This document shows, piece by piece, positions 1 to 33,073 of a stretch of 64,000 bases of DNA. The notes under the pieces are model-generated. The model did no database searches, was not told the origin of the DNA, and was given only the letters and a program-made list of their open reading frames with translations. Source of the DNA: a virus (taxonomy: Duplodnaviria; Caudoviricetes); the IMG/VR virus record IMGVR_UViG_2639763197_000004, positions 27,530 to 91,529 of that record, one strand, 5' to 3'. Numbering within the stretch: the stretch's first letter is position 1; each line of letters opens with the position of its first letter. A program made the translations under genes and the position numbers.

Positions 1-374
1 GCCGCAACCAGTTTTTGCAGTTGTCCAGGGTCGAGCCATTCAACGCGCTCAACCTTGAACATGCGCAAGGCCATACCATCGGCATACGCCCAGGAGCGTT
101 TCGCCTCGGCGAGAAAGGCCTTAATTTTACCCACCAGCTTCTCCCGGTCTGGCGCAGGTTTCGGCGTTTTGCGGCCATGCTTTTTAGCCGGTGCTGACGC
201 CCAGCCCAACCGGGCGAACTCGGCTAGTACTGCGCCGGTCTGGCGTGGAGTCAGGTCTTTGGCCGAACGCACACCAGCCACACGGACCAGTAAGGCGCGG
301 TAGGTTTCGTCATCTAGCCCCAGATCTTTTTTGGCGATATGGATTTTGCTCAGTTGCATGTTTCGCGTGCTCAT
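1..374 (-). CDS. Mu GemA/gp16-like (DUF1018) protein, truncated by window edge
   Basis: Manual translation from ATG 374: MSTRNMQLSKIHIAKKDLGLDDETYRALLVRVAGVRSAKDL...WAYADGMALRMFKVERVEWL. Absent from ORF track because it runs off the window. Confidence 0.85.
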   Translation of the reverse strand, partial: MSTRNMQLSKIHIAKKDLGLDDETYRALLVRVAGVRSAKDLTPRQTGAVLAEFARLGWASAPAKKHGRKTPKPAPDREKLVGKIKAFLAEAKRSWAYADGMALRMFKVERVEWLDPGQLQKLVA

Positions 375-649
375 TGTCTTCCTCCTTTGATCAGGGCCTG
401 GAACGCGGCCGGGTCGTTTCGGGACAGTGCGGCGACACCATGAATAGCCATGGTGAGCGCATGTTCTGTTTCATCGAACGCCCCGGCGCTGCGGATCTGT
501 TCCACTTCGCTCCTGGTGCCGCTATAGATTTCCATCTTGAGTTTGCTAGCGCCCATAGCCAGGCGCTTATCCTTGTCGCGCTTGCGCTGGGCGCGTTTAC
601 GCTCGCGAGCCAGGCGGGTTTTGCGCTGTGTGGGTGATTCGTCTGTCAT
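371..649 (-). CDS. Hypothetical basic phage protein
   Basis: ORF 371..676; likely start MTDESP at 649; ATGA overlap with gemA. Confidence 0.7.
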   Translation of the reverse strand: MTDESPTQRKTRLARERKRAQRKRDKDKRLAMGASKLKMEIYSGTRSEVEQIRSAGAFDETEHALTMAIHGVAALSRNDPAAFQALIKGGRQ

Positions 650-651
650 GG

Positions 652-718
652 GTGGCTGCTCATCAGTACCGGACAACCACGTCCGGCAGACCGCCCCAGC
701 AAGTCGGGACGGTTTCGC
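652..718 (-). ncRNA. Type II hammerhead ribozyme (copy B)
   Basis: Minus strand GC-GAAA-CCGTCCCG(ACTTGC)TGGGGCGG-TC^TGCCGGAC(GTGGTT)GTCCGGTA-CTGATGA-GC-AGCCAC; intact core; predicted cut between 689 and 688. Confidence 0.88.
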
Positions 719-1390
719 TTAGTGCAGGGCAAGCTGTTCCTGACCGTTAACCCCATGGTTTAAGCGCACATCACCCGCTGCAAGAATGCCGTGCAGGGCG
801 TCGGTCATCGCACGCACGCCATTGCCCTTGCTGGCGTTGCGGTCGCGACAGCCGAGCTTTTCCGTTTCTGCGTGATGCTTGAGCATGTACGCCGAAGTCG
901 CCGGGGATGGTTCATCGTTACCGGCAAAAGCCATGACCTGCTTTCGTACCGCCGATACCCAGGCCGCACAGAACACGTCGGCGCGCTTCGTCTTGGTCGC
1001 GGTCTTGCAACGCTTCAACTGAGTGTTGATAAAGTCGCGTCGAGACTGCCGAACCTGGCGCAGCAATAGCGTCATGGTGTAGCTGGCCAACTCCGCCAGT
1101 TCGCCGATAAAACGCCACTCACCGATACCAGCCATGAACAGGACTTTGCAGGCGTAGGCTTGAGTAACGGCTCCAACCAGGTTGGCTTCCCATTGCGGCG
1201 GGGTCATCTTTGAACCACTACGGGCGGCACATTCGTAGACTTCGGATAGCTGGATATCCGATTCTTCTAAGCGATACTTTTCCATCAAGGCACGGGCCTG
1301 GCGCATGGCAGCGGCGGCTTCGTGCGGGTTGTCGCTTGCTGCCAGGCGCAGCAGTTTTTTGATCTTGTCTAAGGCTTTGCTGTGATCCAT
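719..1390 (-). CDS. DUF2786-domain phage protein
   Basis: N-terminus LDKIKKLLRLAASDNPHEAAAAMRQARALMEKY typical of DUF2786; SD GAGGA. Confidence 0.85.
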   Translation of the reverse strand: MDHSKALDKIKKLLRLAASDNPHEAAAAMRQARALMEKYRLEESDIQLSEVYECAARSGSKMTPPQWEANLVGAVTQAYACKVLFMAGIGEWRFIGELAELASYTMTLLLRQVRQSRRDFINTQLKRCKTATKTKRADVFCAAWVSAVRKQVMAFAGNDEPSPATSAYMLKHHAETEKLGCRDRNASKGNGVRAMTDALHGILAAGDVRLNHGVNGQEQLALH

Positions 1391-1398
1391 GTCTTCCT

Positions 1399-1465
1399 CG
1401 GCTGCTCATCAGTACCAGGCAACCACGCCTGGCAGACCGCCCCCAGCAAGCCGGGACGGTTTCGC
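1399..1465 (-). ncRNA. Type II hammerhead ribozyme (copy A)
   Basis: Minus strand GC-GAAA-CCGTCCCGG(CTTG)CTGGGGGCGG-TC^TGCCAGGC(GTGGTT)GCCTGGTA-CTGATGA-GC-AGCCG; predicted cut between 1435 and 1434. Confidence 0.88.
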
Positions 1466-1687
1466 TTATTGAAGGGTCGTGGTGCTCGGTTGCCAGCGGC
1501 AGGCAGGAATGGCACCCAACATCTTTTCGCTGGCGACCAGGTCGAATAGCTTGTTGGAAAGTCGCACGGCTTCCGTCTGCCGGGGTGCGCCCAGGGGGCT
1601 GGTCGGTACGCCTGTCATATCGACGGTGACGGAGGGCTTGCCGTTGCCTTCGGTGCGGTCCTCCAGGGTGATTGTGATCTTTGCCAT
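1466..1687 (-). CDS. Hypothetical phage protein
   Basis: 73 aa ORF in tightly packed operon with SD AGGA. Confidence 0.75.
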   Translation of the reverse strand: MAKITITLEDRTEGNGKPSVTVDMTGVPTSPLGAPRQTEAVRLSNKLFDLVASEKMLGAIPACRWQPSTTTLQ

Positions 1688-1695
1688 GGGGCTTC

Positions 1696-2103
1696 CTATC
1701 GTTGAGTGTGGAAATTGATGTGGTAGTCGCGAGCCACCTGGCGCACGTACTTTTCGGTCATGTGGTGCTTACGTGCGATCCACTTGGGTGAGTTGCCCAG
1801 TGCTGCATCTGCCATGATCAACGTGGCGTGCTTGCGGGTATCCGGCACGACTTCCTCAAGCTCGGCAGATACAGAGGGCGAAGTTGCGGCCACAGAGACA
1901 AACAAGTGGGCATAGACCGGTGTCCGCTCTGGGTTAATAGTGAAGGTCGCAGGGGCGCTGCTCATCTGGTGGCCTACCTTCTGAATTTTTCCGCCGCGTC
2001 CCAAAAATTGCTCAGTCAGGCGGTCGAGGTTGGCGCGTTCAACATCGTGTTGCGGCGAGTGAATGGGCAGAGGATCGCTGCGGGTGTCGTGATAGCGCTG
2101 CAT
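1696..2103 (-). CDS. Hypothetical phage protein, C-terminal HTH-like segment
   Basis: 135 aa ORF; SPKWIARKHHMTEKYVRQV. Confidence 0.7.
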   Translation of the reverse strand: MQRYHDTRSDPLPIHSPQHDVERANLDRLTEQFLGRGGKIQKVGHQMSSAPATFTINPERTPVYAHLFVSVAATSPSVSAELEEVVPDTRKHATLIMADAALGNSPKWIARKHHMTEKYVRQVARDYHINFHTQR

Positions 2104-2105
2104 GG

Positions 2106-2384
2106 TCAGGCCCCCGATGCTCTGAAACCTGATTGGTTGCGTTTACCCAGCCACTGGATAAAGCGCGCCACGGCGGTCATACCTTCACGCGGGTTTTGTG
2201 CCTCAGGAACACCGGGAACAAAGAGCGTTTCGTTGTCCAGTCGAGATAATCGAGCGCACGCGGTGAGGATGTCGCGGACCATTTTTTCTTCGCCGGTGGC
2301 TAGCGCAATGGCACCCTCTGGGAGGGTGACGCCGAAGTCGATATGGCCGGATGAAAAACAATAGGCGGTGATGGTTTTTTTCAT
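2106..2384 (-). CDS. Mu-like early protein (family often annotated host-nuclease inhibitor)
   Basis: Start MKKTITAYCFSSGHIDFG...LFVPGVPEA. Confidence 0.6.
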   Translation of the reverse strand: MKKTITAYCFSSGHIDFGVTLPEGAIALATGEEKMVRDILTACARLSRLDNETLFVPGVPEAQNPREGMTAVARFIQWLGKRNQSGFRASGA

Positions 2385-2385
2385 T

Positions 2386-3006
2386 TCAAACTCCCGCGAT
2401 ATCGAGGCTGATAGCTTCGTACTGGTCAGTATCACCAACACGCTGATACACACGGATGTAGGACTTGGAGCCAACCACCTGACAGGCGTCACCAATGGCC
2501 TGCATGGCGCTCTGCCAGCGTTCATCTGTGATTTCCATACGGCGCAACGCCAACACACGGGCCGTGCGAATGTCGCCTTTCTGGTCAGTCCGAAAGGCGT
2601 CATTCACCAGCGTGACAATTTCGGGGCGTGCCCCGGTGGTCCAGTCGCGTAGGCATTCATCAATCAATGCCCGCGCTGCCTGGAGGCGTTCGTCGAAGGC
2701 GATGCTTTCCTGGACGGCGCGCATGATCTTGTAGCGACCATCAAAACTAATCAGGCTGACATTGCCCTTCTTGCCGCCGATCTGAGCCCCGTACTGCTCG
2801 GCGCTCAACTCGACGAAGGCTTCGATATCGCCAAATGCCGCCGCTTTGAACTGCGACAGTACGGCGCTGGCTGCTCGGGCTTTTTCAACCAGTGCGAGAA
2901 CCAGGGCGTCACGTTCCAGGTCGATAGGCTTGATCAGAATTTCGGGAATCAGCCGCTTTTGAGCGTCAACGCGGTAGCCTTCGGGAATGGTTTGTTGTTG
3001 TGTCAT
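2386..3006 (-). CDS. DUF3164 family Mu-like phage protein
   Basis: GGKKGNVSLISFDG...FDERLQAARALIDECL...SKSYIRVY motifs. Confidence 0.85.
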   Translation of the reverse strand: MTQQQTIPEGYRVDAQKRLIPEILIKPIDLERDALVLALVEKARAASAVLSQFKAAAFGDIEAFVELSAEQYGAQIGGKKGNVSLISFDGRYKIMRAVQESIAFDERLQAARALIDECLRDWTTGARPEIVTLVNDAFRTDQKGDIRTARVLALRRMEITDERWQSAMQAIGDACQVVGSKSYIRVYQRVGDTDQYEAISLDIAGV

Positions 3007-3017
3007 TGCAAGGTTCC

Positions 3018-3341
3018 TCAGTGGAGAGTCGGGCGCGACCAGTCAGCAGGACGGGCGGCGCTAATGGGTTCGCGCCATTCCAGGGTCACGCCCTGAAACT
3101 GCACGTTGTAACGAGTGCTGCCGGCCGTGCCGTGGCGTTGGTAGCCGTCGGTATGGCCGAGGTTGATCAGGCGCTGACCTGATTCGGGAGTGATCACCAG
3201 GAGATTGTTTGCAGGGTGAAACGCCTGCACGCGGATGCCATGCGCCTGCAAATTGCGGGCGGCGGCGTTAAACACCCGCAGACGGTCTGCCAGGGTCGGG
3301 GTCAGGACTTTCAATGGCGTGCGGTTAGTGGAGGCGAGCAT
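3018..3341 (-). CDS. Hypothetical Mu-like phage protein
   Basis: Likely start MLASTNR with SD AGGAG. Confidence 0.65.
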   Translation of the reverse strand: MLASTNRTPLKVLTPTLADRLRVFNAAARNLQAHGIRVQAFHPANNLLVITPESGQRLINLGHTDGYQRHGTAGSTRYNVQFQGVTLEWREPISAARPADWSRPTLH

Positions 3342-3702
3342 GGGCGTTCTCCTGGTTGCAGCAGTCGGGGTTGATTGGGCAGTGTTGGCAGGCGCGCCAG
3401 TGCTGCATCGCCTGCGGGTTGTGAGTCGGTGCCGGTTTTTCGCGGTAGCTTTGGCACTGGTCAGAGGTGATGGTCTCGTCCAGAGCGACGCATTCAATAC
3501 GGCCCAGGGTTTCCATCACACGCCGCTCCACGCCCGCAGTGCTGGGGGATGCGTAGCGGTTGGATAGAATCAGACTGACGGCCGTGCGGCTCATACCAAT
3601 GCGCTGGCTGGCCTTGGTTTTGTTGGTGGCTGCGACCTCGGCGGCAAGCAGGCGCACGAACAGCGGCGCTTCGCTACCCCAAGCGGACAGGTTGACGTTC
3701 AT
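3325..3702 (-). CDS. HTH protein with C-terminal Cys motifs
   Basis: ASQRIGMSRTAVSLIL HTH; WRACQHCP. Confidence 0.75.
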   Translation of the reverse strand: MNVNLSAWGSEAPLFVRLLAAEVAATNKTKASQRIGMSRTAVSLILSNRYASPSTAGVERRVMETLGRIECVALDETITSDQCQSYREKPAPTHNPQAMQHWRACQHCPINPDCCNQENAHARLH

Positions 3703-4313
3703 AGGTCAGCCTCCGCAGGTGCAGGCTGACGGAACACGACCTTGCCCAGGTTCGGGTCAAACACCTGCCCGATTTTCTGAATCATCGGCGGACGGGGTCC
3801 GGTGTATTTGCCAGGGGCCAAGCGATAGCGAGCCTTTTGTTTCTGGCTGCCGGGCTGAACCTCAATCACATAGCCCGCACGCTTGAGCCAAACCAGATAA
3901 GAGCCAGCGGTTGAGACAGTTGTCGGCGTTACGGTTGAGGCCTGGGCCGCTAACTCGTTGGCGTCCAGTTCCCCAAGAATGCGCAGCGTGCGCCACATTG
4001 CTTCGGTGCCTTTGCCCGAATTGCTTGGTTTGCCTTCCTTGGTGAGGGAAGGGGCTTCAGCACCTACGTCCTTGATCAACCGCAGTGTTTGCGCTTTAAA
4101 CAGCTCACCGGAAACTACCTCGACAAAGTCACCACGTATCAGCGACTGCACGTAGGTATTGACGACAGTTCGGTCTGTTTTGGAACGCTGGGTAATTTCG
4201 GCAATTTTGAAGCCGTCACGGCCTGCACGGATGGCTTCCCAGATGCGCTGGCGATTGCTTTTGCTGCCGCGCATTTCCAGATCAATGGATTTACGACCAC
4301 GACCGCCAGCCAT
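3699..4313 (-). CDS. Mu-like DNA-binding (winged HTH) protein
   Basis: Start MAGGRGRK overlapping the B stop; RQRIWEAIR...TGPRPP...VFDPN. Confidence 0.75.
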   Translation of the reverse strand: MAGGRGRKSIDLEMRGSKSNRQRIWEAIRAGRDGFKIAEITQRSKTDRTVVNTYVQSLIRGDFVEVVSGELFKAQTLRLIKDVGAEAPSLTKEGKPSNSGKGTEAMWRTLRILGELDANELAAQASTVTPTTVSTAGSYLVWLKRAGYVIEVQPGSQKQKARYRLAPGKYTGPRPPMIQKIGQVFDPNLGKVVFRQPAPAEADL

Positions 4314-5035
4314 CACGCGCCCCTCCGTACAGGAGCCTCGCCGGTAAACCAGCCCCGTGAGCCCCAGCCAGCGAGGTCGATGCTGTCGATGCACATGGCT
4401 TGGGTTTCGCTATAAACCTTGTAGAGATTGACAGCGACACGACGCAGGCAGCCGCGCACCTTGACGCGCAGATCTTCCAGCAGGTCATCGGCAAAACTCA
4501 GTTTCGGATAGCTGGCCTGGGCCAGGGCGCGCAGATCGTCGAGGGTCGCGGGTTGAGCGGGCACCCACTCCAACACCCGGTTATGCAGGCGCTCCAGTTT
4601 GGCCAGGCTACCCGGCACACGTTCTTCCCCGATCAGCACAATGGTGCCCTGACTGGCGTTATAGATGTCGGTCAACACGTTGGCGACGGCCTTTTCCAGC
4701 AGGTATTGCACGTCGTCTATTAGCAGGGGGCGACCACTGCGGGACAGTTGCTCGGCAACCTGATCAACCATCACCGACAGAGTCAGACCAGGTGCGATAC
4801 CCATCTCGCGCAGGATGGCTTGCAGAAAGGCTTTTTTGCTCCAGGTGTCGCGACACTCGACGTAATAGGCACGGTGCTGGTTGGCTGCGAAGGCCGCACC
4901 AACGCTTTTACCCAGCCCACTCGCGCCATACATCACCACTAGCCCAGGCAACCCCGCAGGGCGTGCATGGGCACGGGCAATGGCGGCAGACAACAGGCCG
5001 ACATTTGTCAGGGGAACAATCTTGGTAACACTCAT
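4313..5035 (-). CDS. MuB-like AAA+ transposition ATPase
   Basis: Walker A GASGLGKS, Walker B LLIDD; directly downstream of the transposase. Confidence 0.92.
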   Translation of the reverse strand: MSVTKIVPLTNVGLLSAAIARAHARPAGLPGLVVMYGASGLGKSVGAAFAANQHRAYYVECRDTWSKKAFLQAILREMGIAPGLTLSVMVDQVAEQLSRSGRPLLIDDVQYLLEKAVANVLTDIYNASQGTIVLIGEERVPGSLAKLERLHNRVLEWVPAQPATLDDLRALAQASYPKLSFADDLLEDLRVKVRGCLRRVAVNLYKVYSETQAMCIDSIDLAGWGSRGWFTGEAPVRRGA

Positions 5036-5059
5036 AATTCGACTCCTAAAGGTCTTGGG

Positions 5060-7120
5060 TTAAGCGCGGGCCTGGTCGGCGAACGCGAACATTTGCTGAA
5101 TGGATTTGAAGTCCGGGTGTTGCGGGTAGCGGGCATGCCACTGCATTTCCTCGGCCGTCGGCGATTCGCCGCTAGTGATGCGGCCATCGATCAGGAGCCA
5201 GAGGCGGTATCGGGCGGTTGGGTCGGCTGGCAATTCAAAGGCCGAGGCCTGCGGTGCAGCCAATTGAGCGAAGCGCTGGGCCTCGGCGAGTTGGTCAGGC
5301 GACAGGTCGTACTGGCTCGACTGCGAAGCAATGACGCGCATTTCCACGTCTTGCCCGGTAATGGTTTTGGCTTTTTTGACCAAGCGGGACAACTGGCCGC
5401 GCTCGCGCTTCTCGCTGGCTTTTTCCAGCATTGTTTTCGGCATGGCAGGGCTAGCGTTGCCGTCGAGCAGCGCCTCGCCGATCAGATCGCCCTCCAGGGA
5501 GTGGACCCAAACACGGCTGGCGTCACGGAAGTCATAGGCCACGCGGACCTGTTCCCCGTGGAAACCGTCCAGGTCTTTAAGGAAGTAGGTGCCGCTGTTC
5601 CATTGCACCTGGCAACGGTGAACGGTGCGCTCGACCTGTGGCCGGGTCAGGCTCTCGACGATGTTGCTGTCAGCCAACAATGGTTCCCAGCCCTCGGCCT
5701 CTGCCGACTTCCAAGACTCCATTGGGCTTTGGTGGCGCTTGCGCATGGTCGCAAGGTCGCGGAATTTCGGCAGACCGCGATGTGGGCGGCGGTTGTAGTC
5801 ATCGAGTGCTTCTTGCAGGGCCGCGAAGAACACCGAAAATTCAGGCACAACTGTCGGCGCGATACCCAGGGCGAGCTGTTTACGGGACAGCTTGTGGGTC
5901 TTGGTAGCGGCCTCTTTATCCATGTCGGCGCCGATGTAACTGTCGAACGTCTTGGCGAGCCGAACCAGAATGGTTTTATGGGGGCGCTCAATTACGCCGC
6001 GAGCCTGGGAGTTGTAGGGCAGCGAGTGCGTGATAGTGCCGCCCAGGCGGTCGTTGACCTCATAAACAACGGCGTTGTCAAAGCCGCTGCCGTTGTCCAC
6101 GTAAAACACCTTGTACATGCCGCAACGACTTACGCCGTCACGTAAGGTGTCCAATGTGGCTAGGGTTGACTCGGCCAGGTTGACGGAGAAACCGACGATA
6201 CGGCGGGTGCCCCAATCAATGACCATGGTGATTTCCGGGCGGAAAATCTGCCCCGTCAATGGATTGATCACTTCGGCGTCAAAGGTGTGGCCGTCAGCCA
6301 CCCACACGTCATTCGGCCAGAGCATGTCGGCCTGACGGCGGTTATAGGCTTTTAAGGCGTTCAGTTCGTGCGGACCCATGCGCCCATGCTCACGCACCGA
6401 CGGGCTGAGTTTTTTCAGCCAGCGGCGTACCGCGTGAATGCTGGGGCAAACACTGGAATTGATGTTCTGGTGCAATTGCTTGAACTGTTCATAAGCGGCT
6501 TCAACGCTTGGTTTCTGCGGGCGTTGGTAGTGCTTGAGGAATGCTTGCGCCCAGGACGGGACGCTCATGTCTTTTTGACGACGGGCCGGAGCCAGGCCTA
6601 TTTCGCCGTGGGCGCGGTAGTCCGCCAGCCAACGCTTGAGGGTGCGCTCAGACAGGGTGCGGTCTTCGGTCTTGCGGTCGTTGGCGCGGATTACTCGGTC
6701 ATTCAGATACGGACTGAGGTCGCCGGTTTTCGCCAACCCAACCAGGGTAAGAATGGCGCGGTTTTGGCTGACTACCTTGCTCATGCGTTCGATTTCACGC
6801 ACGAACGCAAGGCGCGCAGTCATTACAGAAGACTGTGAGTCGTTCAAGCGTGACGCTTTTTCTGAGTCACGCCCGGCTATTACTATGTGTGAATCAACTG
6901 CTGGCTCAGGTGTATTACTGACGACAGCCGCTGTTATGAGCGCAGCTTGGGTTTCCTTCGGCAAGACAGCAAATGCATATTCAGTGGCCTTGCTGCCAAG
7001 ACGTCGCTGACCTTCCCAGCACTCACGCAAGGCAAGCTTACGGATACCCTGCACCGTGCCTGGCATGCTGGGCAGCCCAGCCAGCTCTTGGGGCGAGTAC
7101 CAACTACGCATGGTCGTCAC
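5060..7120 (-). CDS. MuA-like DDE transposase
   Basis: N-terminal Mu HTH; VWVADGH / YVDNGSGF / SQARGVIER DDE triad; Mu transposase C-terminal region. Confidence 0.95.
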   Translation of the reverse strand: MTTMRSWYSPQELAGLPSMPGTVQGIRKLALRECWEGQRRLGSKATEYAFAVLPKETQAALITAAVVSNTPEPAVDSHIVIAGRDSEKASRLNDSQSSVMTARLAFVREIERMSKVVSQNRAILTLVGLAKTGDLSPYLNDRVIRANDRKTEDRTLSERTLKRWLADYRAHGEIGLAPARRQKDMSVPSWAQAFLKHYQRPQKPSVEAAYEQFKQLHQNINSSVCPSIHAVRRWLKKLSPSVREHGRMGPHELNALKAYNRRQADMLWPNDVWVADGHTFDAEVINPLTGQIFRPEITMVIDWGTRRIVGFSVNLAESTLATLDTLRDGVSRCGMYKVFYVDNGSGFDNAVVYEVNDRLGGTITHSLPYNSQARGVIERPHKTILVRLAKTFDSYIGADMDKEAATKTHKLSRKQLALGIAPTVVPEFSVFFAALQEALDDYNRRPHRGLPKFRDLATMRKRHQSPMESWKSAEAEGWEPLLADSNIVESLTRPQVERTVHRCQVQWNSGTYFLKDLDGFHGEQVRVAYDFRDASRVWVHSLEGDLIGEALLDGNASPAMPKTMLEKASEKRERGQLSRLVKKAKTITGQDVEMRVIASQSSQYDLSPDQLAEAQRFAQLAAPQASAFELPADPTARYRLWLLIDGRITSGESPTAEEMQWHARYPQHPDFKSIQQMFAFADQARA

Positions 7121-7544
7121 CGAGCATTTTTTTCAGGTCACGGACTTTTCGCGTTGCATCGTGCGCCACGCGCGATAGCCGTCCGATCTCCGCGTCCAAA
7201 GCCTCGCGTCCGTATGCAACACGGCCACCGCGCAGGTGTACCTGCCAATTAGTCAGGACATGGCTTGCACAAACTTCTTCCAGCAACGCTGCTCTATATA
7301 GAGGAAGGTTGTGATCTGTACGGGCAGGACTCGACCAAGCGTCTAACATGTTCTTACTTACGTCGTCGCCAGAGAGGCGGGACATGCGAGCCGCAATCTC
7401 ATAGCGGTCTAGATCAGACTCTTTGAGGACTTCGCTCACAAGCTCGCTGACCTGAGCGCCGTAGTTGCCAAGGCCTGGTATAGAAAGCACAGGCTGCGGA
7501 ACAGAGAAGATGTCTAAGGTTCTGTCGTCTTTTTGGTTACGCAT
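7104..7544 (-). CDS. Mu-like phage regulatory protein
   Basis: DRYEIAARMS...VSKNMLDAWSS; located between ner and A. Confidence 0.75.
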   Translation of the reverse strand: MRNQKDDRTLDIFSVPQPVLSIPGLGNYGAQVSELVSEVLKESDLDRYEIAARMSRLSGDDVSKNMLDAWSSPARTDHNLPLYRAALLEEVCASHVLTNWQVHLRGGRVAYGREALDAEIGRLSRVAHDATRKVRDLKKMLGDDHA

Positions 7545-7546
7545 GT

Positions 7547-7882
7547 TCAGGCACTCCTTGCCGCTTTACAGTGTCCAACCGGCTGTAGTCCGGTATCCTT
7601 GCTGTAGGAAGTGTTTACTTCTGCACGGCTAGGTCGCTGCCGGTGCGGAGTGCCATCAGCGTTCCAGCGCTCCGGCCAAATGTCCGCAGGCTCTAGGCTC
7701 AGGACGATGGCAAGTGAGCGTTCAATGCGCGGATATGGGGTGTTTTTGGCGTTACGGATTGCGCGGTCGGTTACGTCTAGCTGGCGCGCAAGCTCAGCCA
7801 TGGACGTGCCACGAACACGGAGTTGATATTTGATCCACTCCCATCTGCTGGCAGGGTCGGTGGGCATGACGATATCGCTCAT
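7547..7882 (-). CDS. ner: Ner-like transcriptional regulator
   Basis: WIKYQLRVRGTSMAELAR...YPRIER...IWPERW; divergent from the repressor. Confidence 0.85.
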   Translation of the reverse strand: MSDIVMPTDPASRWEWIKYQLRVRGTSMAELARQLDVTDRAIRNAKNTPYPRIERSLAIVLSLEPADIWPERWNADGTPHRQRPSRAEVNTSYSKDTGLQPVGHCKAARSA

Positions 7883-7947
7883 AGTTTTGAACCATCTTCA
7901 CGGGTGGTTTTTTTGGGACGTCTAACGTCCTGTTGCGGATAAACATA

Positions 7948-8019
7948 TCTCGAAAACAGGATTCGGTAAACTGTTTTCGAGAGTTTCTATTCCCTTTTTC
8001 GGTTTCCGATCCCGAAAAA
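7948..8019. promoter_or_regulatory. Operator region between ner and c
   Basis: Perfect 12-bp inverted repeat TCTCGAAAACAG-N11-CTGTTTTCGAGA (7948-7982) and TTTTTCGG...CCGAAAAA. Confidence 0.65.
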
Positions 8020-8041
8020 TAGATTTAGAGCATAGGATTCA

Positions 8042-8761
8042 ATGCCTTACGACGAAAAGAAACAAAAGAAACTCGCTGGAAAAGATGTTTCTTTTCCATA
8101 TTCGGGATTGGAAACTCGAATTGCGGCTGTTGCCGACCTTTACGAGTCTCGAAAACAGGCTGCGCTGACAGCCGATGCCGCGCTGTCTTCACTCCAGCGC
8201 TGGATCGCAGGCGAAGGTATGCCCGCGTTTGACTCCGTAGCGTTGCTGGCTACCGCCAAGGGCGTCTCTCTGGACTGGATTGCTACGGGCAAGGGGGAGA
8301 TGTTTGTGGGGGCGGCCAAAAAGGAGGCTGTGGCAGACACTGAGGGTGTCTATTCTCACGTACCGCTTTACGACGCCCGCTGTAGTGCGGGCCATGGCTC
8401 TTGGACCGACGGGACTAAGGTGCTCACGCACCTGGCTTTCACGACGTACTCACTGCGTAAGAAGGGCCTTGAGCCATCTAAGCTGTCAGCTATCCGTGTG
8501 GATGGTGATTCAATGGAAGGGCTGTTAAGCGATGGCGACACCGTCATGATTGACCATGGCCGCAATTCGCTTGAGGGTGAGGCGGTCTACGTGATTCGTC
8601 TCGATGACCACCTCTACGCAAAGCGCCTGCAACGGCAGTTTGACGGTTCGGTTAGCATCATCAGTCAGAACAAGGAATACCAGCCAATGGTCGTCCCCAA
8701 GGAACGCTTGGGAGACCTGGAAATAATCGGCCGTGTGGTATGGGCTGGTGGCTGGATCTAA
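8042..8761 (+). CDS. Mu-like prophage repressor, HTH + S24 peptidase
   Basis: HTH (SLDWIATGKG), Ala-Gly site CSAG, GDSM serine, YAKRL lysine. Confidence 0.92.
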   Translation: MPYDEKKQKKLAGKDVSFPYSGLETRIAAVADLYESRKQAALTADAALSSLQRWIAGEGMPAFDSVALLATAKGVSLDWIATGKGEMFVGAAKKEAVADTEGVYSHVPLYDARCSAGHGSWTDGTKVLTHLAFTTYSLRKKGLEPSKLSAIRVDGDSMEGLLSDGDTVMIDHGRNSLEGEAVYVIRLDDHLYAKRLQRQFDGSVSIISQNKEYQPMVVPKERLGDLEIIGRVVWAGGWI

Positions 8762-8772
8762 GTAATGCACCT

Positions 8773-8977
8773 ATGTCAAAGAGCCCGCTAAATCTGGGCT
8801 CTATGACTAATTTCGATTGTTTACCCGCTTGCATTGCTTTGGCACCGTTTTTTCTGGTTTGCAGGACCATCCTTGCCTGCAACGTCCCGGTTTGCCTGGC
8901 TTGTCACGAGTTGTCCTGTTTTATCCAGCTTCTTCCCACCAGATCCTCCCCAGTGCCAAAGCTGCCACTAACCCACA
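8773..8977. repeat. Candidate Mu-like left end with repeated transposase-binding motifs
   Basis: GTGCCAAA 8953-8960, its reverse complement TTTGGCAC 8838-8845, ATGTCAAA 8773-8780; terminal ...ACA at 8977. Confidence 0.6.
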
Positions 8978-10020
8978 GAAGGCTGCGCAACCGCACCGAT
9001 GCGCCTGTAAACGCGCTTGGTGATCTCCTGCTCCGAGTGCCCGAGAAGGAGGCTGGCGTCTGCGATATCTGTAATTTCGGATGCCGCCTTCGGTCGGATA
9101 TCCTTGAACTGAAACTGTTGGATCTTCTCCGCGTCATCAACTCGTCCCTCACTGGCGGCCAAAGAGCGAGCAGCTTCTCGGGCGTCGTCCCACCGGTTAC
9201 GCAGCATTTGTTGAGACACGCGCATCCCCGTTCTGCTGAGGATGAAGTGCTGCGAGTTGTGCTGGCTGTTCCTGGCAATGATGTCCTCAATGAGTAGGCC
9301 GAGGGTGTTCTTCACACCGCCTGCCTGCATTTGAATCCTGAGACGCTTGCCTGTTTTTCCCTGCTGCACGGTTAGGTAATCCCCCTCGATATCCCCCCGC
9401 CTCATTGCGATTACGTCTGCCGGGCGCTGGCCGGTCAGATAGGCCAAGTCCATCGCGTCCCTAAGCTCTTGTGGAGCCTTGCCATACACAGCGGTCCAAA
9501 CCATTTCATTGGCGTAGTAGTCGCGGACCTTCTCTTTATTCTTCCGGACACCGGCGCAAGGGTTTTCCCGATCCGTAAAGCCCCATTCTCGGGCCATGTT
9601 GTAGACGTGGGAGAGCAGGGCGATCTCTCTGTTTGCCCTAGTCTTCGCCGTTCTGGCGTCCCGGTACTGCGCAACCATGGAAGGGGTGATTGCATCGATG
9701 GGCGCCCCCTCGAACCCTTTGCGTAGGTGCTTGAGCTCTGCCTTGTTGTCTTTCTGCGTCCGCGGCGCTTTCTTCGGGATGATGTCCCGCTCGTACCTGT
9801 CAAAAATTCCCTTCATGATCTTCAGGTCTGCCGGCTTTGCCTTGGACTCAAGTTCGGCCCACTTGAGCCTGGCTTTGTCCAAATCTCCACCGAGAGACAA
9901 TTCCTTTCCATTTGCATCTCGGTAGTAATAGCCGACCCACGCTGTACCGTTCTTGCGTGGGCGCTTGCGCCGAACCATCCCGGGGGGCAAGTCCCTATTC
10001 TCTGTCTTGCGGGGGCGCAT
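8968..10020 (-). CDS. int: Tyrosine integrase
   Basis: LTGQRPAD, FKDIRPKAAS, LLGH...ITKRVY catalytic motifs. Confidence 0.95.
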   Translation of the reverse strand: MRPRKTENRDLPPGMVRRKRPRKNGTAWVGYYYRDANGKELSLGGDLDKARLKWAELESKAKPADLKIMKGIFDRYERDIIPKKAPRTQKDNKAELKHLRKGFEGAPIDAITPSMVAQYRDARTAKTRANREIALLSHVYNMAREWGFTDRENPCAGVRKNKEKVRDYYANEMVWTAVYGKAPQELRDAMDLAYLTGQRPADVIAMRRGDIEGDYLTVQQGKTGKRLRIQMQAGGVKNTLGLLIEDIIARNSQHNSQHFILSRTGMRVSQQMLRNRWDDAREAARSLAASEGRVDDAEKIQQFQFKDIRPKAASEITDIADASLLLGHSEQEITKRVYRRIGAVAQPSVG

Positions 10021-10021
10021 A

Positions 10022-10264
10022 TCAGTTCACTCTTGAAAAGTCTGGCGTCCAAGCCGGTCGTGCCGGAGGCGGATTGTTCTCGACTATGCTGGGGCTGACC
10101 ATGCCCAGCTTCATGCGCGCGAACATGCGGCCCACCAGGGGGCGACCACCACGGCTTTCGACGTAGACCCAGTTGCGGTCTTTGAGCCACTTTCGTTGGT
10201 GGGCTCGGTGTTTGTAACCGGTCAGGTCGGCGAGCTCGTCGTCCGACAGGATCTCTGCCTCCAT
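10022..10264 (-). CDS. Excisionase-like DUF4224 protein
   Basis: LSDDELADLTGYK...QRKWL...GRPLVGR; directly upstream of int. Confidence 0.85.
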   Translation of the reverse strand: MEAEILSDDELADLTGYKHRAHQRKWLKDRNWVYVESRGGRPLVGRMFARMKLGMVSPSIVENNPPPARPAWTPDFSRVN

Positions 10265-10266
10265 TA

Positions 10267-10488
10267 CTACCTCCCGCCGCCCGCTGTAGGCCGCGCTGTC
10301 TTGATGATGTGGATGATGAAACCGAAGGTGAGCAGCATCCAGGCGACGGTGCCGGCGAATGCTGCGATCAGGGGTTGTTCGGTACCGGTGGAGAGCAGCT
10401 CCGGCACCTGCCAGAAAAACCAGAAGGTGGACCCCGCCACGTACAACACGATGGCTGTCAAGAGCAGGGTGAGTTTCGTTGCGTACAT
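10267..10488 (-). CDS. Small two-TM membrane protein
   Basis: Two hydrophobic segments in 73 aa. Confidence 0.75.
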   Translation of the reverse strand: MYATKLTLLLTAIVLYVAGSTFWFFWQVPELLSTGTEQPLIAAFAGTVAWMLLTFGFIIHIIKTARPTAGGGR

Positions 10489-10524
10489 GGGGTGTCCTTG
10501 CCGCGCTGGGCGGCAGAAGGTGGG

Positions 10525-11142
10525 TTACTGAGGTTTTGATTTCATCAGGTCGGAAATCTCATCCGCTTCCTTTTCGACCTGCCAGCGCTTCACCTCGGTC
10601 CAGTCGGCCGGGGCCTCCCATAGCAGAGCATCCAGGTCACGGTCGAAACCGGTCTTGGCCGCCTTGATCGCCTTGTACTGCTCCAGTTCATCCGGATCGA
10701 CATCCTTCCAAGGGACGCTGACAAACCAGATGTTGCGCGGAGCCCCGTAGCCCCACAGGGTTGGTGCGTACCATTTTCCTGCATCGGTGAGCATCGGCAG
10801 CCCTGGCTCCAAGTCGACCAGGCGCAGCGCGTGCTCGATGGGTGCCGGGGTTGGCAGCGATTTGATGTTGGCCCAGATTGCTTTGCCCGCTGGCGTGTTC
10901 TTGCGAGGCACCCACAGGCGCGTCTTCTTGTCGTGGCGGTAGATGTCCTGATCGGGCGTAGTTGCGAAGGTGAAGCCAGCAAAGGTGCCGGCGCGGTCGT
11001 AATTTTTCGAACCGGTGGCGCCGTGCTTCACAGCCAGCTCATCGTAGAGCTTGCCGGCGGCAATACGCAGCTCGAACAGGCGATCGATCTCGTCAACCAT
11101 CGGGCCTTGGGTGATTCGGAAGTAGCGCTGATATACGCTCAT
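10525..11142 (-). CDS. Hypothetical phage protein
   Basis: Likely start MSVYQRY with SD GGAG. Confidence 0.75.
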   Translation of the reverse strand: MSVYQRYFRITQGPMVDEIDRLFELRIAAGKLYDELAVKHGATGSKNYDRAGTFAGFTFATTPDQDIYRHDKKTRLWVPRKNTPAGKAIWANIKSLPTPAPIEHALRLVDLEPGLPMLTDAGKWYAPTLWGYGAPRNIWFVSVPWKDVDPDELEQYKAIKAAKTGFDRDLDALLWEAPADWTEVKRWQVEKEADEISDLMKSKPQ

Positions 11143-11191
11143 GGCATAGCTCCGCCCGCCGCTCACCGGCAGGCATGTAGGGGGATTGGGG

Positions 11192-12256
11192 TTAGGCTGC
11201 TGGGTGTTGCGCTGTATCGCGGAAAACATCCATCTGCGCCGCGCCGTCGAGCCATGCCGCTGCGATCCGGTGTTCAGCCATTGCGGCGTATTCCGGGTTT
11301 AGTTCGCACAGGATCGATTTGCGACCTTCCTGCATGGCGACCACCGCCGTAGTGCCGGCACCGCCGAAAGGGTCAAGCACGACGCCGCCGAGTGGCGCGC
11401 CGGCCAGAATGCAGGGTCGGATCAGGTCCGGAGGGAAGGTCGCGAAGTGCGCACCCTTGAAACCTTGCGTCGGCACTGTCCACACACTGCGCTTGTTACG
11501 AGTATCCAATGAATAGGCGCTTTCCTCTCGATCTGGCCGGTGTGTTCCCAGTGATTGCCCAGGGATAGCTTGCTCTCGCTTTGAATCATCGCGCTTGAAA
11601 CTATCGCGCTTGCTACGAACGGCTTTCATTGGCCCGTTTGACTTTCCGGGCACTCGGTCGCTGCCCTGCTGTTGCTCGATATCCTGCGCCAGTCGCTTGA
11701 TCGAGCTGTGCGCTACAGGCTCCTTGATCGCATCCTGGTCATAGTAATAGCGCGGTGACTTGCTCAACAGGAACAGGTATTCATGCGACTTTGTGCACCG
11801 GTCTCTGGTGGATTCAGGCATGGGGTTCGGCTTGTGCCAAATGATGTCCTGGCGCAGGTACCAACCATCATCTTGAAGGGCGAAGGCGAGGCGCCAGGGG
11901 ATGCCCATGAGGTCTTTCGGCTTGATGCCAGTCGGATCTCGAGGGCGGACGCTCATTGTGCGAGCCTCCAGCTTTTCATCTACGCCGCGAGTGGTCCTGC
12001 CCCCGTTGGCGTAGCTATCGCCCATGTTCACCCAGATTGTTCCGTCATTGCGCAGCACCCGACGTACCTCGCGAAACACTTCAACGAGGCGCCCGACGAA
12101 TTCAGCAGGTGTCTCCTCCAAGCCGATCTGGTCGGCCATACCGTAGTCACGCAGCCCGTAGTAGGGCGGAGACGTGACGCAGGTGTTCACCGACTGGTCC
12201 TTCAGCGTCCGCATCGACTCAATGCAGTCGCCGATCAAAACGCGATGTTGTTTCAT
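11192..12256 (-). CDS. DNA amino-methyltransferase (N4-C/N6-A, beta class)
   Basis: TSPPY motif IV near N-terminus; HFATFP; VLDPFGGAGTT SAM-binding motif. Confidence 0.93.
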   Translation of the reverse strand: MKQHRVLIGDCIESMRTLKDQSVNTCVTSPPYYGLRDYGMADQIGLEETPAEFVGRLVEVFREVRRVLRNDGTIWVNMGDSYANGGRTTRGVDEKLEARTMSVRPRDPTGIKPKDLMGIPWRLAFALQDDGWYLRQDIIWHKPNPMPESTRDRCTKSHEYLFLLSKSPRYYYDQDAIKEPVAHSSIKRLAQDIEQQQGSDRVPGKSNGPMKAVRSKRDSFKRDDSKREQAIPGQSLGTHRPDREESAYSLDTRNKRSVWTVPTQGFKGAHFATFPPDLIRPCILAGAPLGGVVLDPFGGAGTTAVVAMQEGRKSILCELNPEYAAMAEHRIAAAWLDGAAQMDVFRDTAQHPAA

Positions 12257-12875: not shown

Positions 12876-14036
12876 TTACTTCTTCAGGAATGTCTTGGTC
12901 AGCGCCGCATTGACGCTGTTGCCGCGCTTCAACACGACGCGAGCCAGTGCTGCCCTGTCTTTCTCGCTGTGGCTGGCCTGGCTGAGCAGGCCGAAGTAGC
13001 TGTTTGCGGTCTCGCGCAGATCCTCGGCGGGCGCCGCGGCTGTTCGCTTCAGCGCCTGGGCCAGGGATCGTTTGCGGGTGGTTCGCCGCCAGGGCTTGAT
13101 GACGTGACCAACGAAGTCGACGCCCCGATCCACGGGTTGCAGAATCGTCTTAGTGGGGTTCAGCTTAGCGCCGAGCCTTGGCAGGAACGCTTCGACCTCG
13201 GCCAACCACTGGTTGAGTTGCTGCGGGGACTCATGCAGAAACACGAAGTCATCGACGTACCGGATGTAGTGCTTGGCGCGCAGCGTGTGCTTGGCGAACT
13301 GGTCCAGGGCGTCGAGGTAGACGTTCGCGAAGAACTGCGACGACAGGTTGCCGATCGGCAGGCCGAGGTGAGCGGGCTGCGCAACCAGGCGCTTGTGCTG
13401 CGGCACCCGGTTGAACAGGTGCGCCGGGCTGCGGATCTCGTAATCCTCACGCGGGTCGTGCATGAGGATCTGCGTGGCTAGGGCCAGCCACCAGGGTTCG
13501 GTGATCTTGGCCTCCAGTTGCTTGCGCAGCACGGCCTTGTCGATGGCGACGAAGAAGTTTGCCAGGTCGCACTTCAGGTAGAAGATCGGTTTCGACCAGT
13601 TCTGCGAGGCGCTGCGGATCTTCGACTCAAGCCGTGTGGCGGCGTACAGCGTGCCGCGCCCTGGAATGCATGCGCAACTGTCCGCTATGAATCTGGCGTA
13701 GAAGCGCGGTGCCACATGGTTGTACATGAGGTGGTGGACGACGCGGTCCCGAAAGGCTGCTGCCCAGACTTCCCGGGCTTTCGGTCGGGTGACCACGAAA
13801 CAGATAGATCGGCCTGGCCGGTATGTGCCGGCAATCAGGTCGTCGTGCAGTTGGATCAGGTTCCGCTCCAGGTCGATCTCGAAAGCCAGCGCGCTGTCGC
13901 TGTTGCGCTTGGTGCGCCGGCAGTCGTAATAGGCCTGCACCAGATCCTGAAACGGGTAGGGGCCCAAAGTCGAATCTGCGGACGGGGCGGACACGGAGCT
14001 CGTTGTTCTTGTCGTTGTTGTTCTGATTGCCATCAT
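12876..14036 (-). CDS. DGR reverse transcriptase
   Basis: FRDRVVHH, CDLANFF, GLPIGNLSSQFFANVYL (DGR-type SQ), YIRYVDDF, GVDFVG. Start uncertain: ATG inside TR or a TTG just after it. Confidence 0.95.
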   Translation of the reverse strand: MMAIRTTTTRTTSSVSAPSADSTLGPYPFQDLVQAYYDCRRTKRNSDSALAFEIDLERNLIQLHDDLIAGTYRPGRSICFVVTRPKAREVWAAAFRDRVVHHLMYNHVAPRFYARFIADSCACIPGRGTLYAATRLESKIRSASQNWSKPIFYLKCDLANFFVAIDKAVLRKQLEAKITEPWWLALATQILMHDPREDYEIRSPAHLFNRVPQHKRLVAQPAHLGLPIGNLSSQFFANVYLDALDQFAKHTLRAKHYIRYVDDFVFLHESPQQLNQWLAEVEAFLPRLGAKLNPTKTILQPVDRGVDFVGHVIKPWRRTTRKRSLAQALKRTAAAPAEDLRETANSYFGLLSQASHSEKDRAALARVVLKRGNSVNAALTKTFLKK

Positions 14037-14076
14037 CGAAGTTCATGTTGAATGCGTTGTTGGCTGAGCGCTGCGA
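13972..14076 (-). repeat. DGR template repeat (TR)
   Basis: 105 nt, 33 adenines, 9 AAC + 1 AAT codons; differs from both VRs only at adenines. Confidence 0.96.
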
Positions 14077-14247
14077 CCTATCGTGCTATCTACGTCGCCA
14101 GGCCGAAGGCAAAGCCGATCAGCAAGGAAACTGCGCAAGACCTGCCCGGTCGCTTTAGACCGGCGGTATCTCTTGTGCGCATGGCGGTGACCCAAGGGTC
14201 AGCGGCACGACCAGATTCAATTCGCACAGACCAGAAAGCCGTAACCT

Positions 14248-14604
14248 TCAGGTAGCGGGCGCGGTTGGGGTGGAGCGTTTCCAGGCGTTTGCTTGCTTGC
14301 CTATTGAGGCCGTTACCTCAATTGCCTGGGCGTGTTGCGGAATGCTGATGAAGCGGTTGTCTTTGAAGAGTCGCATCAGGAACTCGACCACTTGCACCTT
14401 CTCGACCAGCAAGGTGAGGTGTGGCCGCTTGTCCTGGGTTGCGTTGGCCCGGGCAATTAGCATCAGCACTTCGATGCATTCGTCGATCACTCGCTTGCCG
14501 AGTGACTGCTTCAGGTCGCGGGGGATGTTCCGGGTCATCGTTGTGGCCATATGCAGCAGGCCCATCGAAGCCTTGTAGATCGCAAGTTCCGTATGCATTG
14601 CCAT
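14248..14604 (-). CDS. avd: DGR accessory variability determinant (Avd, four-helix bundle)
   Basis: 118 aa basic helical protein (ELAIYK...IPRDLKQSLG...IGKQANAWK) between the targets and TR/RT. Confidence 0.88.
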   Translation of the reverse strand: MAMHTELAIYKASMGLLHMATTMTRNIPRDLKQSLGKRVIDECIEVLMLIARANATQDKRPHLTLLVEKVQVVEFLMRLFKDNRFISIPQHAQAIEVTASIGKQANAWKRSTPTAPAT

Positions 14605-14626
14605 GTGGCTCGCTCTCCAAGAGCAA

Positions 14627-14644
14627 CCGGCCGCAAGCGGCCGG
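14627..14644. promoter_or_regulatory. GC hairpin/cruciform downstream of VR1 (DGR target-recognition element)
   Basis: CCGGCCG-CAAG-CGGCCGG, 14 nt after the target stop codon. Confidence 0.7.
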
Positions 14645-14658
14645 ATTAAATAAGCGAA

Positions 14659-15279: not shown

Positions 15280-15358
15280 GGTGCTTCCTCTTTTCGAAGG
15301 CAACAAAAAAGGCGCTGTGCGCCCTGGTGTGCCGGATCAAGAACGAATGGATGAAGGA

Positions 15359-32854: not shown

Positions 32855-33073
32855 ATTGCTCAAAATTCACTGCAGCCAGGGCAGCCCTCGGGAGGCCTGG
32901 ACGCTGATAAGCCGGTAGTGCAGCGCTACGGAAAAACACCGGCAGCCCGTGCACTCTGACCTCACATGCTTGTGGAGTGGCGCGAGACAGGAAGGGCGAG
33001 ATCGATGCATTGGGGCGTCGACGCTTGGATTGTCTCTGGCAGACAGCGCGGAAAGACGCGCACACTTATTCAG

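Follow-up and report, generated by a model that had tools for sequence, protein, structure and literature searches.

The window analysed here is a 64,000-nucleotide (nt) stretch of the 91,529-base provirus record IMGVR_UViG_2639763197_000004. Near its start, on the minus strand, it carries two hammerhead ribozymes that stand on either side of a single DUF2786 gene. The upstream copy occupies positions 1396..1467 and the downstream copy positions 650..720 (both on the minus strand). The gene between them (719..1390, minus strand) encodes a protein of 223 amino acids with a DUF2786 and a DUF7168 domain (PF10979, E 6.6e-14; PF23771, E 2.4e-21; phrog_421, E 3.5e-59). We call the place of this gene the slot. 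Its conserved left flank is a 73-amino-acid open reading frame (ORF; 1466..1687, minus strand), which was taken from the ORF list and has homologues in relatives, and its conserved right flank is the 92-amino-acid phrog_4093 gene (371..649, minus strand; E 5.3e-35, with the profile starting at residue 10 of a longer ORF). The GemA gene comes next and runs off the window start (3..374, minus strand; PF06252, E 7.5e-26).

The part of the operon that lies upstream of the slot spans 1696..7120 on the same strand. By Pfam and phrog profiles, it contains a transposase (5060-7120), an AAA ATPase (4313-5035), DUF3164 (2386-3006), a Gam-like nuclease inhibitor (within 2106-2603) and phrog_5249 (1696-2103). 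The order of elements therefore runs from the transposase to phrog_5249, followed by the 73-amino-acid ORF, hammerhead, DUF2786, hammerhead, phrog_4093 and GemA. The transposase, the ATPase, DUF3164, the Gam-like protein and GemA bear out the Mu-like early operon that had been recognised in a preliminary description of the window, made without database searches.

Two complete type II hammerheads

Both elements match the Rfam Hammerhead_II family (RF02276, a covariance model of 66 positions with a gathering score of 37 bits) over its full length, model positions 1-66 of 66. The upstream copy scores 69.8 bits (E 1.7e-12) and the downstream copy 67.1 bits (E 8.9e-12), both about 30 bits over the gathering threshold. 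This Rfam search, which the preliminary description had proposed as a check, upholds its ribozyme call: on their sequences both elements are hammerhead RNAs, and self-cleavage at this locus is predicted. They are the only RF02276 matches in the complete 91,529-base provirus record, none of 14 control genomes has a match to the family, and a looser Rfam scan of window positions 1-40000 returned no further ribozymes. The two copies form direct repeats (44 nt at 91% and 36 nt at 92% identity) with a spacing of 746-747 nt.

Each copy consists of a stem II of two base pairs (bp), GC/GC, then G12 A13 A14, a stem III hairpin, the GUC triplet, an 8-bp stem I hairpin and CUGAUGA, and ends in a tail (AGCCG or AGCCAC) that is able to pair with the GUGGUU of loop I. 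The catalytic core is complete in both (C3 U4 G5 A6 N7 G8 A9, G12 A13 A14, A15.1-U16.1, G10.1-C11.1 and GUC). Read from the sequence of the minus strand, stem II of the upstream copy is formed by G1465 C1464 with G1405 C1404, followed by GAA at 1463-1461, stem III at 1460-1436, C17 at 1435, stem I at 1434-1413, CUGAUGA at 1412-1406 and the tail AGCCG at 1403-1399. In the downstream copy, stem II is formed by G718 C717 with G659 C658, C17 is at 689, stem I at 688-667, CUGAUGA at 666-660 and the tail AGCCAC at 657-652. The copies differ in stem I by two compensatory pairs, CCAGGC/GCCTGG upstream versus CCGGAC/GTCCGG downstream.

The ribozymes are packed tightly between the genes. The upstream hammerhead starts at the base after the stop codon TAA (1468-1466) of the 73-amino-acid ORF, and its tail (1403-1399) overlaps into the Shine-Dalgarno sequence GAGGA (1399-1395) of the DUF2786 gene. 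The downstream hammerhead starts at the base after the TAA (721-719) of the DUF2786 gene, and its tail (657-652) ends 2 nt before the ATG (649-647) of the phrog_4093 gene. Cleavage is predicted between 1435 and 1434 (after C1435) and between 689 and 688 (after C689). The two cuts would release an RNA of 746 nt (689..1434, minus strand), whose length and end hairpins were computed from the cut sites. It would consist of a 5'-OH end, the stem I hairpin, the ribosome-binding site, the ORF, the stem III hairpin and a 2',3'-cyclic phosphate. The two compensatory stem I pairs, the placement right after the upstream stop codons and the arithmetic of the cut sites and the 746-nt product all agree with the preliminary description.

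Selection on the hammerhead fold

An alignment of 60 distinct hammerheads, drawn from the window and from 47 related loci, was scored for pairing in the three stems and in the loop I-tail pseudoknot, using as controls 500 shuffles and alignments in which partner columns were slid by 1-3. Standard pairs fill 93.3% of cells, compared with 27-55% in the slid controls, and 10 pairs have changes on both sides. None of the 500 shuffles matches the observed percentage paired, the number of both-side changes or the covariation score; the count of further pair types was matched by 42 of the 500. Stem I is 99.8% paired, and three of its pairs have changed on both sides, switching among G-C, A-U and C-G. 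Stem III is 93.8% paired with six such pairs, and stem II is 100% paired. The four central pairs of the pseudoknot are present in 60 of 60 sequences; one of the pseudoknot pairs changes from G-C to A-U in 3 of the 60, and another is U-G, U-A or C-G. The core columns are invariant across all 60 sequences except for N7 and one C11.1-to-U change.

The three-way junction with an open stem II and loop-closed stems I and III, which is the type II topology, is thus supported by covariation, and so are the 2-bp stem II and the loop I-tail pseudoknot that had been read from the two window copies. Since compensatory changes in the stems and the pseudoknot go together with an invariant core, selection appears to act on RNA structure and not on DNA identity. 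Taken together, the alignment provides strong evidence that the hammerhead fold is under selection.

A constant hammerhead and a variable slot

Related loci were fetched and numbered L001-L075, and hammerheads in the relatives' loci were located with a core-motif regular expression alongside the Rfam model. The nearest cultured relatives of the prophage are the D3112-like transposable phages of Pseudomonas aeruginosa, genus Casadabanvirus. A similar hammerhead is present in 133 phage records (134 places in total), 119 of them Pseudomonas phages, with one copy per genome in all but one metagenomic record. In the seven phage loci fetched, the hammerhead sits at the same early-operon position. 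JBD24, HKPH_J3 and LPB1 have a single hammerhead before DUF2786 and none after the gene, and Nox and Ab30, which have no DUF2786, have a single hammerhead directly before the phrog_4093 gene. One genome record, L075, titled Pseudomonas proteolytica strain DSM 15321, has a twin locus with an identical DUF2786 protein and identical hammerheads including 12-nt flanks, and is also identical to the window over two 100-nt test stretches; the locus is thus at hand in a cultured strain. Twin loci are found in five further Pseudomonas genomes of the species-representative set.

Two censuses were made. The first took 41 IMG/VR loci with a DUF2786 relative and scanned the whole records with the Rfam model: two hammerheads are present in 26 records, one in 10 and none in 5, and no record has more than two. 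Eight of the ten one-hammerhead records have their copy only upstream of DUF2786, and the other two are interrupted by the contig end. The five records without a hammerhead comprise four distant relatives (31-42% identity) and one fragment. Two hammerheads in the same orientation around a gene or a short block of genes in a prophage operon are therefore found in the window and in 26 of the 41 related records. The spacing of the pair falls into three classes: 743-754 nt with DUF2786 alone (8 loci), 920-1002 nt with one additional small gene (6 loci) and 1166-1170 nt with an additional gene of 138 amino acids (12 loci).

The second census took 24 loci picked by the downstream gene, phrog_4093, among relatives of at least 81% identity. 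A hammerhead ends just before the phrog_4093 start in all 24, so that the constant feature is the hammerhead at the phrog_4093-gemA boundary. A homologue of the 73-amino-acid ORF lies directly before the first or only hammerhead in 22 of the loci, and the remaining two end at the locus edge. Fourteen loci are twin with DUF2786, one (L053) is twin without it, seven are empty and two are ended by the locus edge, an empty site being the 73-amino-acid ORF, one hammerhead and phrog_4093. In L053 the hammerheads are 796 nt apart and enclose two other ORFs. The single-ribozyme empty sites, whose existence the preliminary description had raised as a question for a survey of relatives, therefore do occur. 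The spacing classes and L053 rule out that the pair always encloses exactly DUF2786; the second hammerhead comes along with whatever genes are inserted before phrog_4093. The 3' tail goes with the downstream gene, being AGCCGAGGAA before the first cassette gene and AGCCACCC-ATG before phrog_4093. The same association holds in the P. aeruginosa phages, in which, apart from the tail, the ribozyme body is of a single type.

Several smaller features of these loci were also seen. The 138-amino-acid ORF that precedes DUF2786 in the 1166-1170-nt class (L001, 3224-3640) has no Pfam or PADLOC match. The same ORF recurs in L053 (1700-2430), followed by an ORF of about 100 amino acids in place of DUF2786. 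The first two codons past the upstream hammerhead (ATG GAN) are alike among these unrelated cassette genes. The ATG of phrog_4093 lies 2-5 nt past the pseudoknot tail (AGCCACCC-AUG and variants) without a Shine-Dalgarno sequence (window 647-660; L001, L005, L006 and L010-L039); the upstream-type hammerhead, in contrast, is always followed by GAGGA. In three P. aeruginosa phages with the upstream hammerhead only, DUF2786 is followed by a 12-nt spacer (TGA GCG CGTCCGG CG ATG; L003 4114-4131, L007 3757-3774, L004 3654-3671) that resembles the first bases of the hammerhead joined to the 3' strand of stem I with the middle deleted. This spacer may be the remnant of a lost downstream hammerhead.

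Chimeric hammerheads at the empty sites

Stem I separates upstream from downstream copies in 17 of the 17 twin loci of the window's clade, the set used for this comparison, and the stem III loops differ as well. By these differences, all seven empty-site hammerheads have the upstream 5' flank and the downstream tail, and the type switches at differing places in between. The body is entirely downstream-type in L052. In L066, L072 and L073, stem III is upstream-type and stem I downstream-type (the hammerhead sequences of L072 and L073 are identical). In L065 and L074, stems III and I are both upstream-type and the tail is downstream-type, and in L071 the type of stem III is ambiguous. There are at least three crossover positions among these chimeras, and the three switch zones correspond to three blocks common to both copies, GCGAAACC, GGTCTGCC and GGTACTGATGAGCAGCC.

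Switch zones inside blocks that both copies share fit homologous DNA recombination between direct repeats. Cutting and ligation of RNA at the scissile bond, by comparison, would give only the class with an upstream stem III and a downstream stem I. A tree of the 640 nt 3' of the last hammerhead shows the single-hammerhead loci scattered among twin loci; its well-supported branches force at least three changes of state, and L052, for instance, falls together with the window and L051 on a branch with 100/100 support. Altogether, the chimeric single hammerheads point to DNA recombination between the ribozyme copies, in events whose direction we infer. The mobile gene cassette suggested in the preliminary description is supported at the level of DNA, with empty-site chimeras that have at least three crossover points.

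A model for the ribozyme pair

Building on the family membership, the structural covariation, the architecture census and the chimeric scars, we consider it probable that active hammerheads cut the early polycistronic transcript as it is made, insulating the genes at the edges of the variable slot, and that the copies recombine as DNA. The early RNA of this D3112-like transposable Pseudomonas prophage would be cleaved co-transcriptionally after C1435 and C689 into three pieces. The first, the replication and transposition segment, would have the stem III hairpin and a 2',3'-cyclic phosphate as its 3' end. The second would be a 746-nt monocistronic DUF2786 mRNA with a hairpin at either end, and the third a phrog_4093-gemA(-mor) mRNA with a 5'-OH and the stem I hairpin at its start. 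Every downstream gene would receive a fixed leader regardless of upstream content. Hairpin ends with a 5'-OH or a cyclic phosphate are poor entry points for the 5'-end-dependent RNase E and for 3' exonucleases. The decay of each piece would be uncoupled from that of its neighbours, and the pieces could have lifetimes of their own. The overall effect would be that of a natural ribozyme insulator, which would be useful where the upstream content keeps changing.

At the DNA level, the ribozyme pair would delimit an accessory-gene slot in which the hammerhead before phrog_4093 is constant and the second one arrives with the inserted genes. The direct repeats of about 65 bp may serve as homology for the gain, loss and exchange of cassettes, and recombination between the copies would leave one chimeric hammerhead.

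Several points weigh against this model. Cleavage at this locus is predicted from sequence, and the contigs of four RNA-labelled public runs (X2, X3, X7 and X11, out of 24 runs found, all available as contigs; compared with window positions 1-2600) bridge both cut sites, which indicates uncut template there, though possibly DNA. The bridging contigs cover 328-742 and 1155-1536 in X2, X3 and X7, and 1014-1535 in X11, which is without cover over 385-847. The comparison showed no places where molecules begin or end, but contigs by their nature cannot show RNA ends, so that this result counts neither for nor against cleavage. Nearest-neighbour folding, to which we give low weight as it does not model pseudoknots, returns a hammerhead as the minimum-energy fold of the downstream copy and a non-hammerhead fold for the upstream copy alone. 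The predicted accessibility of the start regions is nearly unchanged between cut and uncut RNA (0.49-0.60): it is 0.565 for the DUF2786 start when cut versus 0.55 and 0.49 when uncut, and 0.60 versus 0.49 for phrog_4093, with no clear effect. The expected influence of the ends on stability is drawn from RNA decay in E. coli and not from Pseudomonas data. In P. aeruginosa relatives, only one side of DUF2786 has a hammerhead, so bracketing from both sides is not required for this gene. Finally, the recombination part of the model is built on seven empty sites, and phage mosaicism weakens the flank tree.

Alternative explanations

It is possible, though unlikely, that the hammerheads are conditional switches whose folding competes with a terminating ribosome or responds to ions or temperature, so timing the hand-over to gemA-mor. 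Each hammerhead abuts the preceding stop codon, in the window and in the relatives listed, so that stems II and III would be covered by a ribosome terminating there; moreover, the constant hammerhead lies just upstream of the gemA-mor regulatory genes. On the other hand, there is no aptamer-like or additional conserved domain, as the ribozyme fills the entire intergenic space, and pseudoknotted type II hammerheads cleave fast at 0.5 mM Mg2+ according to the accessible text of Perreault et al. 2011 (PMC3088659).

A more radical proposal is that a host ligase such as RtcB circularises the DUF2786 message into a translatable mRNA, or that the outer fragments join and splice the cassette out. We regard this proposal as improbable; if it were true, the hammerhead pairs of Mu-like phages would represent a bacterial equivalent of circular RNAs made by ribozymes. 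The first form, in which the 746-nt RNA is joined by itself or by RtcB into a circle that rebuilds one chimeric hammerhead as in retrozymes, was the central hypothesis of the preliminary description, and we find it decidedly improbable. By general hammerhead chemistry both cuts would give suitable ends (5'-OH and 2',3'-cyclic phosphate), the two copies have the same stem II (GC/GC) and the same core so that a chimeric hammerhead could form, and the twin arrangement is frequent (26 of 41 records). However, the cleavage fragments of a type II hammerhead are held together by stem II alone, which is 2 bp here, and the pseudoknot lies wholly in the 3' fragment. No helix is predicted between the ends of the 746-nt RNA in its minimum-energy fold, and as a dimer the ends gain only -3.7 kcal/mol through a 4-bp pairing that is not that of a hammerhead, a value that carries low weight for the reason given above. 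DUF2786 with a single hammerhead occurs in P. aeruginosa phages and in 8 of the 41 IMG/VR records, and both the content and the length of the cassette vary. A stop codon ends the ORF, hence there would be no endless translation. The contigs of the four RNA-labelled runs contain no joint, but as rare forms are apt to drop out of contigs, this says little for or against a circle. The hypothesis had in fact been raised and looked for earlier: circular and spliced products were considered and not detected, with data not shown, in the accessible text of Perreault et al. (PMC3088659). Altogether, the circular RNA is not supported. The use of the same ribozyme sequence twice, as an RNA insulator and as DNA homology for gene swapping, is less radical than a circle or splicing and is better supported.

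We find it very improbable that the repeats have a role in the DNA alone, serving as homology arms or being a selfish repeat, and that their RNA activity is vestigial. The empty-site chimeras do show that the DNA copies recombine. Nevertheless, stems I and III and the pseudoknot keep their pairing by compensatory change around a core that is invariant in the 60 distinct sequences, and stem I is kept different between the copies in 17 of 17 twin loci, the opposite of what is expected of homology arms. Least probable of all is RNA splicing, in which the outer fragments would be ligated after both cuts, removing the cassette from some transcripts and restoring a chimeric hammerhead: three of the seven empty-site hammerheads (L066, L072 and L073, the last two sharing their sequence) have exactly the expected junction, but the junctions lie elsewhere in L052, L065 and L074, fitting DNA crossovers in conserved core blocks, fixation of a spliced RNA in DNA would need reverse transcription, and spliced products were among those not detected in the accessible text of PMC3088659.

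The DUF2786 protein and neighbouring elements

Searches with the DUF2786 protein gave no functional lead: the single match among PDB sequences has an E value of 0.42, and the ESM Atlas returned only DUF2786/DUF7168 clusters. PADLOC had no match for the four proteins tried, DUF2786 among them. No promoter-like sites were found in window positions 1-9000. Terminator-like sites in the same region number 10 versus 9.8 expected, and none lies on the minus strand below 4998.

A CI-like repressor (8042-8761, plus strand) marks the repressor end of the Mu-like prophage. Just past this end, the minus strand at 8968-12256 encodes a tyrosine integrase (8968-10020) and an N6/N4 DNA methylase (11192-12256), which suggests that a second mobile element adjoins the Mu-like prophage. 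The following region (12876-15970, minus strand) contains a reverse transcriptase (RVT_1, 12876-14036) and an RT-15 RNA (RF03018, 182 bits, 14074-14264). A 141-nt repeat is present there three times, at 13957-14097, 14656-14796 and 15353-15493; the second and the third copy each lie at the 3' end of an ORF with an Lcl_C domain. The mismatches of these two copies fall on A residues of the first copy in 24 of 47 and 23 of 43 cases, though A makes up 42 of its 141 bases. From these sequence features, 12876-15970 is likely a diversity-generating retroelement. Well outside the Mu-like prophage, a Proteo-phage-1 RNA (RF03044) is found at 32870-32947 on the plus strand with 82.1 bits against a cut-off of 42.

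Relation to known systems

The twin-hammerhead arrangement is of an already published kind and not a new kind of element. Natural type II hammerheads with a loop I-tail pseudoknot and a stem II that is commonly two base pairs were described by Perreault et al. 2011 (PMC3088659). As far as its accessible text goes, that study reported several prophage hammerheads that flank single genes, cleavage in vitro at the expected sizes for three tandem arrangements and in vivo, after cloning in E. coli, for one. It proposed that long phage transcripts are processed in this way to mRNAs of operon length or of single genes. Its prophage clusters share with the window the same-orientation type II hammerheads, the pseudoknot, the 2-bp stem II and the flanking of genes or short blocks. 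They differ in that Clostridium scindens, Azorhizobium caulinodans and Agrobacterium tumefaciens (ardA) supplied the cases tested; the word "Pseudomonas" is absent from the main text, empty sites and chimeric single ribozymes are not mentioned in the accessible text, and the figures or supplements might include a DUF2786 example.

The Mu-like context has a precedent as well. In the accessible text of PMC10085705, which cites earlier work on this point, hammerhead and twister ribozymes are most strongly associated with Mu-like phage genes and with each other, for reasons stated to be unknown. The window agrees with that report in its Mu-like context and its two ribozymes close by. The published result is a statistical association, whereas the present analysis separates a single locus family into loci that are occupied, differently occupied or empty. 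With the flanking of single prophage genes and the enrichment near Mu-like genes both in print, the novelty attached to the arrangement in the preliminary description falls away. A 2019 review describes the processing role as suggested but unproven and undefined (PMC6765202, accessible text). Why hammerheads exist in bacteria and phages is treated as an open question in that review and in PMC10085705, again by their accessible texts. The present locus family offers a clean natural experiment on it, in which closely related prophages share the operon and have no gene, one gene or two genes enclosed by ribozymes, or else just one ribozyme. A number of them are found in named Pseudomonas strains available in culture and among the well-studied phages of P. 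aeruginosa, which makes the idea of processing and insulation directly testable.

What is new here are the chimeric hammerheads at the empty sites, which on sequence evidence mark the ribozyme pair as the boundary and a recombination substrate of a variable gene slot. A literature search for chimeric hammerheads at empty sites found no paper, with subscription journals and supplements outside its reach, and a search pairing hammerhead with DUF2786 likewise found none, supplements not being covered. For hammerhead together with named D3112-like phages, only an engineered-ribozyme paper mentions a hammerhead among the matches listed. For self-cleaving ribozymes with phage recombination or mosaicism, none of the matches listed is relevant by title and abstract.

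Another known system is the single type II hammerhead of the D3112-like P. aeruginosa phages of the genus Casadabanvirus (D3112, MP22, JBD24, LPB1 and LESphi4). Their ribozyme is 87-92% identical and stands in the same early-operon place, before DUF2786 or phrog_4093, but in one copy per genome, whereas the window and most IMG/VR relatives have two. The record of a D3112-like phage, OQ594957.1, annotates the element as 'Hammerhead ribozyme (type II)'.

Retrozyme hammerheads are of type III, and their ends are held together by long helices. Like retrozymes and viroid-like circular RNAs, the window has two hammerheads in direct orientation that bracket a segment releasable with ligatable ends (PMC6765202, accessible text). 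According to the same text, retrozymes have their hammerheads in long terminal repeats, with target-site duplications, a primer-binding site (PBS) and a polypurine tract (PPT), and no ORF. The hammerheads here are instead of type II with a 2-bp open stem, and they enclose a gene for a 223-amino-acid protein with its ribosome-binding site in prophage DNA. There is no helix to hold the ends, stem II being 2 bp and the ends of the 746-nt RNA unpaired with each other, and the insert is coding; PBS, PPT and target-site duplications were not searched for. As the locus lacks both the end-holding helix and a non-coding insert, a retrozyme-like element is less likely; circles made by a ligase keep a small probability.

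RiboJ is an engineered insulator derived from a satellite RNA ribozyme, in which a hammerhead upstream of the ribosome-binding site fixes the 5' leader whatever precedes it. The window resembles it in having a hammerhead, predicted to be self-cleaving, just upstream of a ribosome-binding site. RiboJ is engineered, while the arrangement here is natural and its insulating effect is a proposal.

Finally, the slot can be set beside the genome plasticity of D3112-like phages. In the accessible text of Cazares et al. 2014 (PMC4378225), Mu-like phages of P. aeruginosa have regions of accessory genes whose positions in the left arm of D3112-like genomes are fixed; no common flanking sequence was found, and the word "ribozyme" has 0 occurrences there. 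Unlike those regions as described, the slot analysed here is bounded by hammerhead repeats. The hammerhead repeats are thus a concrete candidate, at one accessory slot, for the flanking homology that the accessible text of the 2014 study did not find (PMC4378225).

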